Virus record (IMG/VR): IMGVR_UViG_3300045988_123958
DNA from: a virus
Reading direction: 5' to 3' (one strand)
DNA length: 64,000 nt
This document shows positions 1-64,000 of the stretch, piece by piece. The notes under the pieces are model-generated. The model saw only the letters and a program-made list of their open reading frames with translations. It ran no database searches and was not told the origin of the DNA. Position numbers and translations under genes: made by a program. Numbering within the stretch: the stretch's first letter is position 1; each line of letters begins with the position of its first letter.

Positions 1-466
1 GATCCCAACAAGTAATCATATCTCCGCTAGGAGTTCTCATAAATGATGCGGTATCAAATGGATCGTCACCATATAAAATAACGCCAGAAGCATGAGAAGA
101 ACGTTTATTAACTATTCCTTCAATATATACAATAATATCCAAAAGACCAGGATATTGATTTACTTCTCGAATAAATGCTTGAACGGGTTTACGATCTTTT
201 TCCTCATTGCCATAAATAACATCATGGATAGGCCATAAAAATCCACGCTCTTGAGGAATTAATGAAGACATATATTGAGCATTATCAACATCAATTCCTT
301 CTGGAAATTCTTCACTTCTATATCCACGGCAAGCAGTTAAAATACTTTGTTTAGTGCCTTCAGTTCCAAATGTAGCAACTTGAACCAATCCCAATTCTCC
401 GCGTTCTTTTCTAATTGCTTTGAAAATTGCTGGACGTTTACTTGGAGCAAGGTCAATATCAATATC
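1..466 (-). CDS. dnaE: DNA polymerase III alpha (DnaE-like), exon 2, truncated by window edge
   Basis: Minus-strand frame starting at 466 reads DIDIDLAPSKRPAIFKAIRKERGELGLVQVATFGTEG... and runs open to position 1; joined to exon 1 it restores the DnaE ...RFLNKERAELP|DIDIDL motif. Confidence 0.7.
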
Positions 467-1621
467 CGTTTTTATTTATTGGACTATATTTTTCACGATA
501 ATTTACTGAGAGCATTTTAATTCAATTATCGCTAGAACATCTTTCAGATGGTGCTTATCTCCACCTTACATAATAGTCTCTACACATTTAATCTTTATTT
601 ATCTATTTCCAATAATAACCTTTATATAAAGTATTTTCTTTTATCGCTTTATCTAACTAAGTATGTCCTTTTAATCCTAAGAATTCTAATACTGCGGTTT
701 TAGCATTAAAAATTTGAATTAAATTATTATTTTCATCATACATAGCAATTTTTTTACCATTGATAGCCTTATTACCTTTTTTACCATACATACCATTTTT
801 ATTTCCTAATGTCTTACCAATACTATTAATAGACATTTTTTGTTTTGATTCAATAGTATGATGTTTACCATACATTCCATTATTTTCTCCAGATGTCAAT
901 TTACTCATTTTATTTTTAAACTCTGGAGTTTTATAAATTGAATTATCTCTTTCAAATTCAGCCCAATATGATAAAAATGATTTTGTTTCTTCGCTATGCT
1001 ATTTGCCATACATTCCATTATTTTTACCACGATTTAATTCACTTAATTTTCTTTTTAAAGCTTTTTTTTCTTCTTCAGTATATCCAGCGGTAGTATTACC
1101 GCCTTCTCCGCCTTCATGAATATTATAAAATAATGGATTAGATACTGCATTATATAAAGCTATAAAATATTTTTCTTTTTCTTTATTTTCTTCATTATTA
1201 TTAGAAATATATAAAATAGACTTAGTAAAGTTTTCTTTTCCGTATTTATTAATAGCTCTTTTTAAAATTTTGCCACTTCCTAAATAGGAATCATCTAATT
1301 CTCCATAATGTTTTCCAATATATTTCATACCATTTATGTTATTTGTAGTTAAATAAATATAATGTTGTTTCATCATTAAACAACTCCTTTCATAATTATT
1401 TAACTATTAGAATTAGACAATGACTTGACTTTGTCCAAGATTTTTAGCACGGTATTATCAATCTATCCATTTTCAGGACATAGACTCTCTTAGTCAGTTG
1501 ATTCGCTCTTAAAATTAATTAAGACTTATTTCACTGATACCGTTAGCCTGCATCAAGCAGACACCCATTAAGCAATGGTTAATGTTCTTTTTTTACAACT
1601 GCCCAATATCAATATTAGACT
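467..1621 (-). mobile_element. group I intron (subgroup IA2, T4 td-like) in dnaE, carrying a GIY-YIG endonuclease ORF
   Basis: 5' exon ends in U (ccT at 1622); P1 pairing CUGCCU:GGGCAG directly downstream; P3/P4-like GCTAACGG; P7' AAATATAGTCC near 3' end; intron ends in G (plus 467); splicing gives PDIDIDL. Confidence 0.7.
657..1376 (-). CDS. GIY-YIG homing endonuclease with NUMOD3-like NGMYGK repeats (intron-encoded), one in-frame TAG at 996-998
   Basis: YIYLTTNNINGMKYIGKH GIY-YIG motif; ORFs 999..1376 and 657..908 share a frame and are separated only by TAG. Confidence 0.7.
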
Positions 1622-2999
1622 AGGCAGTTCGGCTCTCTCCTTATTTAAAAATCTCCAATAAGGAAGTCCCCAACGAATTGGGTCTAATTGAGTAATACCT
1701 AAAAGATAATTAGATAAAAAGCCAGTTGCAGAACCTCGCCCAGGACCTACGATACTTCCACATTCCCAAAATAAATTAATATAATGTTGAAAAGTATTAA
1801 AATAAGCAAAAAGACAATCATCTAATTTTTCGCCAATATCTTTTATGATATCAGCTTCAATTTCAAGTCGCTCTAAATAATTTTTATTATCATAAAGTTG
1901 CTTTTCTTGTAAAGCTTTAATACATTCATTTACCCAATATCGTTCTTGAATATTGTCGCTATTAATTAAAGAACAGATAATTGGATATTTATCAAACCAA
2001 TTTGAAGGAATGAATCCTTTCTTGTAATCCTTTACTTCAACTTTTGGAATAATTTGTTTTCTTTCTAATGAATAAAAAGAAATTTTATTTTGGATCTCTT
2101 GAGTGTTATCAAGAATCCAATTTATCAATTCTTTTCCTGTTTTATTATCTTTATCCCAATCATTAGCATAAGGTTCCATTAATTCAAAAATTTCATCACT
2201 TGTCATTAAGTAAGTAAATTTATAAAAATCGTCAACCTCTCTTTCTCCTGGCTTAGAAGTAAGATATGCTTTATGAATGGGTCTATCTTCTTTAGTTAAA
2301 TAATGCGCATCTGTTCCAACTACCATTTTTAAATCAAACGCCTTGGCGATTTGATAAATTTTATGATTTACAATTATTTGCTCAGCGTCAGTAGATGGCG
2401 CACATTCAAGATAAAAATCATCTTTTCCAAATACTTTAATACAAAAATTGATATAATCAATTATTTGATTGTAATATTTAGTTTGAGTTTCAATATCTTT
2501 ATTTAATTCTGCTTGGAACATTGGTAAAATACAGCTACCGAGTTCTCCACCAATACAAGCAGTTGTTGCTATAACATGCCCTTTATATTGTTCCATTACC
2601 ATTTCAAGTTCACTTTTTAAAGTAGGAACTCGTTCCATACGTCTATCAACATAACTATGAATCCAAGCAATAGAACTTAATTCTCTTAATGCTTTATGTC
2701 CGATGGCATCTTTAGCAATAAGAATAAAGTGGTAATATTTTTGTCCGTTATCTCTTGTATCAGTGAGATAAATTTCATTACCAAGAGCAATAGTAAAATC
2801 AGGATTTTCTTCTCTTATTTTTTTTGCATATTGATTTACTTCCATATGTGCAGAAAGACATTCATGGTCTGTAATGGCGATGCCCGATAATCCTAATTCT
2901 ATTGCTTTATCAATTAGTGCTGTTGGTCGATTAATACAGTCAAAGTAAACGGAGATTCGAATACATAGTATGTGAATGGCAATTAAAATATGATCTCAT
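1622..2999 (-). CDS. dnaE: DnaE-like Pol III alpha exon 1 (PHP domain through GPGRGSATG...RFLNKERAELP); needs a +1 frameshift at 2939-2945
   Basis: ATG at 2999 with AAAGGAGGG SD; MRSYFNCHSHTMYSNLRLL in frame 1 meets TGA, and the PHP motif continues (D)CINRPTALIDKAIELGLSGIAITDHE in the +1 frame; GTDAHYL and GPGRGSATGFLSNYLLGITQLDP motifs downstream. Confidence 0.75.
2939..2945 (-). other. putative programmed +1 frameshift site CUU_UGA_C (same heptamer as the RF2/prfB site)
   Basis: Frame 1 reads ...LRLL then UGA; skipping one U gives GAC UGU AUU = DCI continuing the conserved PHP domain. Confidence 0.4.
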
Positions 3000-3035
3000 T
3001 CTAACTCCGACCCTCCTTTTATTTTAATTTATATT

Positions 3036-3064
3036 TATATAATATCATATTATTTAATAATAAT
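3036..3064 (-). promoter_or_regulatory. sigma70-type promoter upstream of dnaE (TTGATT-N17-TATTAT on minus strand)
   Basis: Minus-strand sequence TTGATTattattaaataatatgaTATTAT ~35 nt upstream of the dnaE start. Confidence 0.5.
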
Positions 3065-3317
3065 CAAATCGAGAGATATAATTATCGCATATACTACGAA
3101 TATCTCTTAAAAAATCAGCAAAATCTTTTGATCGAGTCGCTATCTTATGTATATTATCATGAACCATAGAATTTAACATATCTAATTCTACATTTAAGTC
3201 ATGGGTAAAAAGTTCTAAATTAGAGGTTAAATCCTAAGCTAAATCCGCGTCTTTAAGAAACATATTATTTTCAAGTATAGCGTTAATACTTGAATTTAAA
3301 TTAGATGTATTTAACAT
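3054..3317 (-). CDS. hypothetical small protein (87 aa, one in-frame TAG)
   Basis: ATG at 3317 adjacent to the helicase stop; MLNTSNLNSSINAILENNMFLKDADLA[TAG]DLTSNLE...SRFDYY, TAA at 3054. Confidence 0.4.
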
Positions 3318-3318
3318 A

Positions 3319-63023: not shown

Positions 63024-63107
63024 CATAATTAAATAGCTCTTTTTTTATTTTATTTAAGCAATTAGTAAAAACAGTTACGCCGCGAGAAGGCTTGCTTAAT
63101 GTAACCG

Positions 63108-63180
63108 AGCTGGAGACAGGAATCGAACCCGCGACATCTTCATTACAAGTGAAGCGCTCTACCTGCTGAGCTACTCCAGC
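63108..63180 (-). tRNA. tRNA-Thr (UGU); CCA not encoded
   Basis: GCTGGAG-TA-GCTC-AGCAGGTA-GAGC...anticodon stem CTTCA, loop CTTGTAA...GCGGG-TTCGATT-CCTGT-CTCCAGC-T. Confidence 0.7.
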
Positions 63181-63312
63181 ATATCGGCACTAACGCAGTT
63201 CCCGCGTTCTTCCTCCCAATCTCTTTAACTTATCAATTAAAGAGTTCGTTGCCGAAAGAAAAGTATAAGAAAAAAAATTTTTGAAATCTTTCTCTCTCAA
63301 CTTTCTATATAT

Positions 63313-63341
63313 ATTATATATTATTTTTTTAAAAATGTCAA
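63313..63341 (-). promoter_or_regulatory. consensus sigma70 promoter upstream of tRNA-Thr (about 130-nt structured leader)
   Basis: Minus strand TTGACAtttttaaaaaaataataTATAAT. Confidence 0.55.
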
Positions 63342-63399
63342 AAAATTTTTAAAAGTAGTTTATTGAAGAAATTGTTGAAATATTTTTATAATTGATTTT

Positions 63400-63882
63400 C
63401 TATGGTCTTTTGGACCAATTATCCGCGATTATCAAATCTTGTGTTTTATCATCATATCCAATTATTGTAATTGTATGATTAGAATATTTTTCGCATTTCC
63501 AAAAAGATAAAATAACAGGTTTATTCATATCAATTAAATTTTTAATTGTAGTAAAATTATATCCAAATTCTTTTAAATAATTTGAATGAGTTTGACATTT
63601 TTGTTTAGAAAAATATTCTAAAGATTTATTAAAAATATTTTTAATAAGTAAAGGATTAGTTCCTCGTTTATCATTATAACAATATTTTTTTCCAATAGAT
63701 TCAACTATATTATAAATTTCTTTAATAGAAGGATTTCTGAAACGAGTGTAACAAATAGATGTTATACTCATTAGAGAACAATTACGTTTATTACCAAAAT
63801 CTTCTTGATCTAAAAAGAAAAAAATTTTAATACGATATTCCATAATAGATCTACTCCTTATAAACTTCCTATTTTTACCCAA
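63400..63882 (-). CDS. hypothetical protein, possible papain-like/C39-type cysteine peptidase (weak)
   Basis: Cys...His...Asp spacing (NCSLMSITSI ... HTITIIGYDD ... ADNW). Confidence 0.3.
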   Translation of the reverse strand: MGKNRKFIRSRSIMEYRIKIFFFLDQEDFGNKRNCSLMSITSICYTRFRNPSIKEIYNIVESIGKKYCYNDKRGTNPLLIKNIFNKSLEYFSKQKCQTHSNYLKEFGYNFTTIKNLIDMNKPVILSFWKCEKYSNHTITIIGYDDKTQDLIIADNWSKRP

Positions 63883-64000
63883 GATGTAGTTGCTATTGGG
63901 CCGGCTGTAAAAGTACCCGTTCCAACATTAGTATAAAACACATTATTAACTGCATCATATAATCCTAAAGTTCCTGAAGAATTTTTCGCAGGAATTAAAT

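Follow-up and report, generated by a model that had tools for sequence, protein, structure and literature searches.

In a 64,000-nucleotide stretch of the IMG/VR virus record IMGVR_UViG_3300045988_123958 (the window), the amber codon TAG is a sense codon, and we consider it very probable that the phage uses genetic code 15, in which TAG specifies glutamine, TAA (about 75%) and TGA (about 25%) act as stops, and TAG is decoded by a phage tRNA with a CUA anticodon, tRNA(CUA), encoded just outside the window. The window, which has a GC content of 32% and carries all of its credible genes on the minus strand, is part of a gut phage genome of ~190-200 kb; the position of each minus-strand TAG is given as its low coordinate. 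The analysis followed up an earlier inspection of the letters and open reading frames (ORFs) alone (the sequence-only reading), which had proposed that TAG is read through in many conserved genes, probably as Gln.

With TAA and TGA as the only stops, about twenty minus-strand frames are joined at the coordinates that the sequence-only reading had named. For example, the TAG at 3874-3876 links ORFs 3319-3747 and 3874-4443 of the Dda-like helicase in one frame, with an AAA_30 domain upstream and UvrD_C_2 downstream of the TAG and superfamily 1 helicases from the PDB aligning on both sides. The RecJ-like gene was said to contain TAGs at 8654, 8384 and 8126, which it does, together with three more that we found at 7856, 7235 and 7166, and the PDB RecJ chain 8y30_A aligns with residues 47-574, through all six. 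The TAGs predicted for the DnaB N-terminus (where we count 2), the radical SAM gene (3 by our count) and the endolysin (9, as stated) are also in place, as is a YIG[TAG]A motif expected near 19500 and located at 19495-19497, and gyrA, gyrB, the ligase, Sak4 and the MVP-like gene indeed have no TAG past the start codon. Pfam domains run unbroken over TAGs in DHH, RecJ_OB, Phage_lysozyme2, Amidase_2, Radical_SAM and the DnaB N-terminal domain, the GIY-YIG domain continues across them in seven endonucleases, and the supported TAG-containing genes hold no in-frame TAA or TGA and no frameshift. Since TAG makes up 16% of coding-strand stop trinucleotides (810/4969), TAA being three times commoner, six random stops in RecJ would all be TAG with a probability of ~2e-5. 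In agreement with the proposal that the true stops are TAA and sometimes TGA, the 87 called genes terminate with TAA (65) or TGA (22), a count from which TAG is excluded by design because the caller treats it as sense.

Comparing the codes by greedy gene calling, we observed a rise in coding density from 78.1% (code 11) to 89.7% with TAG as sense, and in mean gene length from 164 to 207 amino acids (aa). A control with TGA as sense reached 79.5%, and TGA recoding was rejected as bringing no gain in coding density. Moreover, the same frame remained open and best-scoring after 8/11 TAGs versus 3/43 TAA or TGA codons (Fisher P = 2e-5); strict thresholds left 7-11 TAG sites for this frame-continuity test, a small sample, and the tabulation of orthologues therefore carries the main weight. 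In that tabulation no orthologue ended at the position of a window TAG. At 76/78 TAG sites with orthologue data at least one relative has TAG too, which shows the codon to be conserved between independently made assemblies. For TAGs lying ~5-17 codons before a TAA or TGA (e.g. 63400-63402 and 603-605), the tails are too short to judge.

To see which residue stands opposite TAG, the ORFs of 131 relative loci were translated with TAG as X and aligned to the recoded genes of the window, taking the best match per locus at >=45% identity and >=60% coverage. Gln, as proposed, is the commonest non-TAG residue, occurring at 25 sites when residues are counted once per site, followed by K (13), E (9), L (7), D, A and T (6 each), Y (4), S (3) and W (2), against a Gln background of only ~3% of residues. 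For each amino acid, a substitution profile was drawn from these alignments and compared with the profile of the TAG sites; Q fitted best (log-likelihood -289), ahead of K (-325), E (-333) and all others, which scored lower. The codons found in relatives opposite the window TAGs are mainly CAA (20) and CAG (11), and in the reverse comparison the window has CAA 33 times and CAG 3 times (Q 36) at the TAGs of relatives. As a change from TAG to CAA takes two steps, with the direct path leading through TAA, this interchange points to shared meaning rather than mutational proximity. In individual genes, relatives have Q 27 and TAG 13 times at the site in the Dda-like helicase; Q, TAG, K or S at DnaB residue 23; Q at several endolysin sites, with PDB amidases aligning across one TAG; and GIY-YIG paralogues have Q at the YIG-x site where the window gene 18682..19578 has TAG. 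The standard-code RecJ 8y30_A has Q opposite 2/6 RecJ TAGs. The same procedure yields Leu for an unrelated phage family (see below) and thus discriminates between amino acids. Taken together, the alignments support TAG as a Gln-like codon, with Gln by far the best-fitting amino acid.

The sequence-only reading had counted seven tRNAs in the window, none with a CUA anticodon, and concluded that the suppressor must lie elsewhere. ARAGORN and Rfam find six intact tRNAs (Cys, Lys, Gly, two Ser and Thr), none of them CUA, and the seventh is a tRNA-Leu(UAA) split within the anticodon by a ~0.9-kb insert. Our search for the suppressor used the peptidase gene at the high end of the window as anchor and covered 10 kb beyond it in relatives; in near-identical genomes tRNA(CUA) is indeed present, in the same array, 9-17 kb past the high end of the window. 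In contig 122866 a 90-nt tRNA(CUA) adjoins tRNA-Tyr(GUA) about 9.2 kb past the window end (Rfam tRNA, 57.7 bits), and the same tRNA was recovered from contigs 118370 and 126669 (exact 31-mer) and 131075 (looser pattern). Contig 118370, which matches the window at 100% identity in both Sak4 and SPFH, carries it at about 77.6 kb on the gene strand, roughly 17.4 kb past the window end. The tRNA belongs to an array of >20 tRNAs.

This tRNA(CUA) has an unpaired U1·U72, G2-C71, G73, G10, the anticodon loop CU-CUA-AA, a normal D loop and an extra arm of ~21 nt with a short stem, and its D and anticodon arms resemble those of a phage tRNA-Trp(CCA). In three other viral contigs, tRNAs of similar sequence preserve cloverleaf and extra arm through compensatory changes and have U1-A72 or U1·U72 with G73. 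A recurring suppressor type was seen, with G73, U1 (either unpaired or in a U1-A72 pair), a D arm like that of class I and a conserved extra arm of ~20 nt that has a UGA-type loop; it occurs at loci L121 (629-718), L133 (3369-3458), L138 (405-494), L139 (2992-3082) and L142 (9454-9544), the last lying 5 nt downstream of a tRNA-Trp(CCA) with like D and anticodon arms. Just upstream of the suppressor at L121, a tRNA match (168-363, Rfam 42 bits) contains a 126-nt anticodon-loop insertion, making it a further interrupted tRNA of the array.

The acceptor features of tRNA(CUA) appear compatible with charging by Gln. Escherichia coli glutaminyl-tRNA synthetase (GlnRS) recognises a weak 1:72 pair, G73, G10 and U35, an identity set that we take to be matched by U1·U72, G73, G10 and C34-U35 of the phage tRNA, and amber suppressors derived from tRNA-Trp, or from tRNA-Tyr mutants altered at 1:72/73, insert Gln. 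The Gln-inserting amber suppressors of E. coli (supE, su+7 and su+3 acceptor mutants) presumably have CUA, U35 and G73 in common with the phage tRNA, as well as a 1:72 pair that is weak or missing; the phage tRNA differs from them in its additional ~21-nt arm. supE, the tRNA-Trp-derived su+7 and the acceptor-end tRNA-Tyr su+3 mutants are laboratory suppressors that give partial readthrough, not a genome-wide code. For recoded phages, Borges et al. describe TAG suppressors as glutaminylated (bioRxiv 10.1101/2021.08.26.457843).

Among the alternatives, the one that fares best, improbable as we consider it, is that TAG is sense but stands for Glu (through a non-discriminating GluRS and no amidation), Lys, Tyr, Ser, Leu, Trp or pyrrolysine (Pyl). 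It draws on the class-II-like extra arm of the suppressor and on its nearness (~600 bp) to a tRNA-Tyr(GUA) of 90 nt whose anticodon arm is similar, on the frequency of K and E opposite TAG, on the label 'Pyl' that ARAGORN gives to tRNA(CUA), and on the other phage family that apparently reads TAG as Leu. However, K and E trail Q by 36 and 44 log-likelihood units with all others lower still, the counts for Y, S, W and L are small beside that of Q, CAA and CAG dominate in both directions of comparison, and the suppressor has discriminator G73 where the neighbouring phage tRNA-Tyr has A73; Tyr, Ser, Leu, Trp, Glu and Lys were rejected for their far poorer fit than Gln. The 'Pyl' label reflects the CUA anticodon alone. 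Whereas tRNA-Pyl has a variable loop of 3 nt, tRNA(CUA) has its ~21-nt extra arm and a normal D loop, and Gln, not Lys, fits best; pyrrolysine was rejected on these grounds, and no Pyl gene is among the Pfam matches of about 50 window ORFs.

It is very unlikely that TAG is still a stop, that the affected genes are pseudogenes or are expressed in separate pieces, and that the host provides no more than leaky readthrough. ORF lists made under code 11 do show fragments, and many of the affected genes are mobile homing endonucleases, which are prone to decay, but the ~74 interruptions are all TAG in a genome where TAA trinucleotides are far commoner. They also hit essential genes (DnaB, and the endolysin in its catalytic domains) and cut single Pfam domains in mid-fold, relatives as distant as ~60% identity conserve both their positions and the protein sequence on either side, the interchange with Gln is specific and a dedicated tRNA(CUA) exists; pseudogenes and split polypeptides were rejected accordingly. 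Errors of assembly or sequencing as the source of the TAGs, or a chimeric window, as might be feared of a metagenome-derived contig, are effectively refuted by the recurrence of the TAGs in many assemblies: identical ones are present in >15 IMG/VR contigs that were assembled independently, and also in ENA/Logan contigs, which come from different samples.

How, then, might Gln be inserted at TAG? An amber-suppressor tRNA encoded by the phage in its large tRNA array would decode TAG after being charged with Gln by a host enzyme and would compete with host release factor 1. Genes free of TAG (the 40-58 kb block, gyrase, ligase, Sak4 and the high-GC3 genes for abundant proteins, GC3 being GC content at third codon positions) would be translatable by the untouched host machinery. 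The TAG-rich endolysin, homing endonucleases, RecJ, DnaB and radical SAM enzyme would be made at full length only after the suppressor has accumulated, so that TAG may act as a timer or throttle on expression. The same model has been published for phages of this kind (Borges et al., bioRxiv 10.1101/2021.08.26.457843; Peters et al., PMC9523058).

Several points weigh against code 15 with such a suppressor. Besides Q, K and E are frequent at the TAG sites. The suppressor tRNA lies outside the window, its presence being deduced from near-identical genomes, and an extra arm is unusual for tRNA-Gln and typical of Ser, Leu and Tyr tRNAs, so that charging is not readable from its sequence. GlnRS is lacking in many Firmicutes, and a search of the window and of ~21 kb of flanking sequence from relatives found no release factor or aminoacyl-tRNA synthetase gene. 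There is no clean early/late split: TAGs occur in the replication genes RecJ, DnaB and Dda, and are missing from some tail-fibre-like genes outside the window. Finally, peptide-level validation of code 15 is that of crAss-like phages only (Peters et al., PMC9523058).

TAG is used unevenly across the window. The 87 called genes (a list with a few spurious ORFs) contain 84 in-frame TAGs versus 519 CAA plus CAG codons, yet 15 genes of >=250 aa have no TAG, with a joint P of about 1e-12.6 under uniform use. Among low-GC3 genes, those of the 40.4-57.8 kb block have 1 TAG versus 41 CAA plus CAG, compared to 74 versus 317 elsewhere (P = 0.004), and the TAG fraction falls with rising GC3 (Spearman rho = -0.45, P = 0.001), the block effect and the GC3 effect being separable. 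Genes at 37-42% GC3 (MVP-like, DUF2828, SPFH and RNA ligase) use almost only CAG and AAG and never TAG, and the TAG-richest genes are the homing endonucleases (21-28% GC) and the endolysin. The window thus holds a gene set compatible with the standard code alongside a recoded one. Two codon dialects can be told apart: the SPFH, RNA ligase, MVP-like and DUF2828/DUF7788 genes and a 315-aa protein of unknown type (37352-38737, 45003-46382, 51081-55261 and 15952-16899) have 40-45% GC, favour CAG, AAG and GAG and lack TAG, and the remaining genes have 21-35% GC and favour CAA, AAA and GAA.

This distribution agrees with the published proposal that recoding delays some products, above all those of lysis genes and the endonucleases of introns, to the time when the changed code is active (Borges et al., bioRxiv 10.1101/2021.08.26.457843). 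The GC3 effect could equally well be read as a cost of incomplete suppression in abundant proteins. A joint reading, which we put forward only tentatively and think rather unlikely as a whole, is that the suppressor is an undescribed class of phage tRNA that enables a phage of Firmicutes to establish TAG = Gln without a synthetase of its own, combined with a gene-by-gene TAG throttle. Such a tRNA may unite a Gln-type acceptor end with Trp-like D and anticodon arms, CUA and a conserved extra arm; TAG would be missing from proteins that are needed immediately or in very large amounts and most frequent in homing endonucleases and the endolysin, and would work as a quantitative throttle on expression rather than a simple early/late switch.

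In all, ~74 in-frame TAGs fall within 22 supported genes, about a quarter of the genes (Table 1).

Table 1. TAG-containing genes and associated features of the window, with residue counts in relatives where given.
Feature	Position	Strand	TAG codons and remarks
GIY-YIG/NUMOD3 homing endonuclease, downstream of DNA polymerase III (Pol III) alpha fragment	588..1376	-	3 TAGs
Dda/RecD-like superfamily 1 helicase	3319..4452	-	1 TAG (3874-3876); AAA_30 residues 11-165, UvrD_C_2 326-375
RecJ-like DHH exonuclease	7115..8863	-	6 TAGs; domains DHH, DHHA1, RecJ_OB
DUF2726-like protein	10824..11528	-	2 TAGs
DnaB-like helicase, C-terminal part	11583-12119	-	
GIY-YIG + HTH homing endonuclease, within dnaB insert	12252..12929	-	4 TAGs; GIY-YIG (residues 1-93) spans TAGs
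DnaB-like helicase, N-terminal 345 residues	13089..14150	-	2 TAGs; DnaB and DnaB_C domains
Conserved 220-aa protein	17366..18028	-	2 TAGs; residue 195: Q in 20 relatives, TAG in 15
GIY-YIG homing endonuclease	18682..19578	-	8 TAGs including YIG[TAG]A; GIY-YIG residues 12-83
Membrane/coiled-coil protein	19735..20550	-	4 TAGs; residue 198 in relatives: Q 22, TAG 18
GIY-YIG homing endonuclease directly downstream of gyrB	25986..26675	-	5 TAGs
GIY-YIG/NUMOD1 homing endonuclease	28620..29369	-	3 TAGs
Endolysin (Phage_lysozyme2 + Amidase_2)	30870..32171	-	9 TAGs; both domains span TAGs
Radical SAM/SPASM enzyme	34328..35620	-	3 TAGs; Radical_SAM (33-192) spans one, SPASM (289-362) follows another
Cys/Gly-repeat protein	35952-36656	-	2 TAGs
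153-aa protein	36671-37132	-	2 TAGs
GIY-YIG/NUMOD homing endonuclease	39609..40349	-	5 TAGs
Standard-code-compatible block	40418..57763	-	Essentially TAG-free; EcoRI-like methylase, GmrSD-HNH, DUF2828/DUF7788, MVP-like, RNA ligase, phosphoesterases, NADAR
tRNA array	57755..63180	-	Cys, Lys, Gly, split Leu(UAA), Ser x2, Thr
Cys-rich HNH-like protein inside tRNA array	58362..58928	-	3 TAGs; residue 50: Q 21, K 14, TAG 8
GIY-YIG/NUMOD1 homing endonuclease inside tRNA array	62382..63026	-	4 TAGs

IMG/VR holds >15 near-identical contigs, the longest of 197 kb, and a wider family reaching down to ~55% protein identity. By Sak4 the closest cultured phages are Enterococcus phages (EF1 and VRE9) at 41% identity, a distant relationship; like the window phage, these Herelleviridae-like phages of Firmicutes have a large genome, Sak4, a tRNA array, many homing endonucleases and interrupted genes. 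A megablast of window positions 20000-44000 against GenBank phages returned no match, an exact 44-mer from the end of the window had no hit in IMG/VR, and the ORF at 61951-62322 is present in short contigs (<=5 kb) from gut metagenomes. Pfam matches in the window cover replication and repair (a Pol III alpha fragment, Dda-like helicase, RecJ, DnaB, Sak4, ATP-dependent ligase, gyrA, gyrB, RNase H and PhoH) as well as the endolysin, the radical SAM enzyme and seven GIY-YIG homing endonucleases.

Mobile endonucleases appear in or next to several of these genes. An insert of ~1 kb with the TAG-rich GIY-YIG gene 12252-12929 interrupts the minus-strand dnaB (11583-14150) behind residue ~345, and DnaB is a single 510-aa ORF in near-identical relatives (e.g. 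locus L007); the insert, in which Rfam detects none of the known intron families, may be a self-splicing intron, or the gene may be truly split. Rfam reported no group I intron in the whole window at the gathering threshold, and none at E <= 1 in 57000-64000 or 11400-13300. The Pol III alpha ORF (1568-2845) contains no more than the PHP domain and the beginning of the polymerase core and is followed by the GIY-YIG/NUMOD3 gene 588-1376, and gyrB (26827-28638) is followed by the GIY-YIG gene 25986-26675 and small ORFs, then RNase H and gyrA (region 24870-28638); both regions may represent further genes interrupted by mobile endonucleases. The minus-strand tRNA-Leu(UAA) (59985-60970) has exons at 60970..60934 and 60037..59985, and its insert encodes a TAG-free LAGLIDADG_2 endonuclease (60143-60748); this tRNA is uninterrupted in relatives L122, L128 and L003 and bears inserts of other sizes in others. 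The end of the 271-aa membrane/coiled-coil ORF (19735-19830, minus strand) reads '...GIYKITNLENQMCYVGQAVNTGR' right before the TGA stop, and this terminal GIYKITNLENQMCYVGQAVNTGR, being similar to the first GIY-YIG motif, is possibly the remnant of an endonuclease fused at the 3' end. Within the standard-code-compatible block, a cluster at 45003-55261 encodes the MVP-like protein (MVP shoulder and Vault_3 domains, 832 aa), the DUF2828/DUF7788 protein, an RNA ligase and an RlaP-like nucleotidyltransferase and adjoins GmrSD-HNH and the EcoRI-like methylase; by its predicted products it resembles an RNA-repair or ribonucleoprotein module.

Crass-like and Lak phages, and the Jade, Sapphire and Agate clades, are established cases of a reassignment of TAG to Gln that involves suppressor tRNAs of the phage (Borges et al., bioRxiv 10.1101/2021.08.26.457843), with proteomic validation for crAss-like phages (Peters et al., PMC9523058), and code-15 recoding is already well described in gut phages, to which this family is an added case. 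The window phage shares with the code-15 phages of Borges et al. the alignment of TAG with Gln, low GC, a phage tRNA(CUA), the mixture of standard-compatible and recoded genes and a strongly recoded lysis gene; a recoded intron or homing endonuclease in an otherwise unrecoded gene was also described there, but for TGA. Jade, Sapphire and Agate are large phages of Firmicutes (150-210 kb) in which codes 11, 15 and 4 are mixed within clades (bioRxiv 10.1101/2021.08.26.457843), and the size, Firmicutes-type relatives and mixed codes of the window phage are compatible with them in a comparison made by description only. A 'code-change module' of release factor 2 (RF2) and aminoacyl-tRNA synthetase genes was not seen in the window plus ~21 kb of flank; such genes are reported in a minority of recoded phages and are not obligatory (Borges et al., bioRxiv 10.1101/2021.08.26.457843). 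The window phage differs in its recoded RecJ, DnaB and Dda, recoding of this kind being called variable by Borges et al., and in a suppressor with an extra arm, of which we found no mention in the phage-recoding papers that we read.

Another relevant group is that of phAss-1 ('Phassvirus'; PMC10607447), human-gut phages with TAG in many ORFs, a tRNA-Sup(CTA), no dedicated aminoacyl-tRNA synthetase and a predicted Clostridia-type host. The window phage likewise comes from the gut and has TAG-containing ORFs, a suppressor tRNA and a Pol III alpha gene, whereas phAss-1 is smaller (136 kb), and since megablast of the 24-kb segment against GenBank phages was empty, phAss-1 is not of the same lineage at the nucleotide level.

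The tRNA pattern search also brought up unrelated phages with Ser-like or Leu-like tRNA(CUA). One unrelated family, comprising IMGVR_UViG_3300028833_005988 (L143), L135 (8377-8461) and relatives L144-L148, has genomes of 64-80 kb with 49-55% GC. Comparing IMGVR_UViG_3300028833_005988 with five relatives, we found opposite TAG the codons CTG (11), CTC (7), TTG (5), CTT (5), TTA (2) and CTA (1), as against CAG (2) and CAA (1); TAG occupies conserved Leu/Ile positions of Pol III alpha, and in its tRNA(CUA) this family combines the D arm of a tRNA-Leu with A73-CCA. In this family TAG thus appears to encode Leu, for which we found no mention in the searchable phage-recoding literature; Borges et al. 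state that the changes in their phages were confined to TAG to Q and TGA to W (bioRxiv 10.1101/2021.08.26.457843). At three short loci, L136 (948-1035), L137 (7318-7407) and L141 (1954-2041), tRNA(CUA) has tRNA-Ser-like acceptor and D arms and a long variable arm, and reading TAG as sense raises coding density only slightly. Because seryl-tRNA synthetase ignores the anticodon, these tRNAs could insert Ser at TAG.

Within the family of the window phage, relatives at ~47-54% protein identity (L052, L054-L056, L109, L111, L112, L114, L117 and L118) have no in-frame TAG in 800-2500 aligned residues, so the code differs within the family. Annotation of this phage family calls for translation table 15: if table 11 is used, roughly one gene in four is fragmented, among them the endolysin, RecJ, DnaB and every GIY-YIG gene, and 12% of the sequence seems non-coding. 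The case leaves current understanding unchanged and adds a well-resolved example of gut phages overriding the stop-codon reading of the host, made useful by a located suppressor tRNA and a clear split between TAG-free and TAG-rich genes, and its relatives without in-frame TAGs are suited to the study of how recoding is gained and lost.

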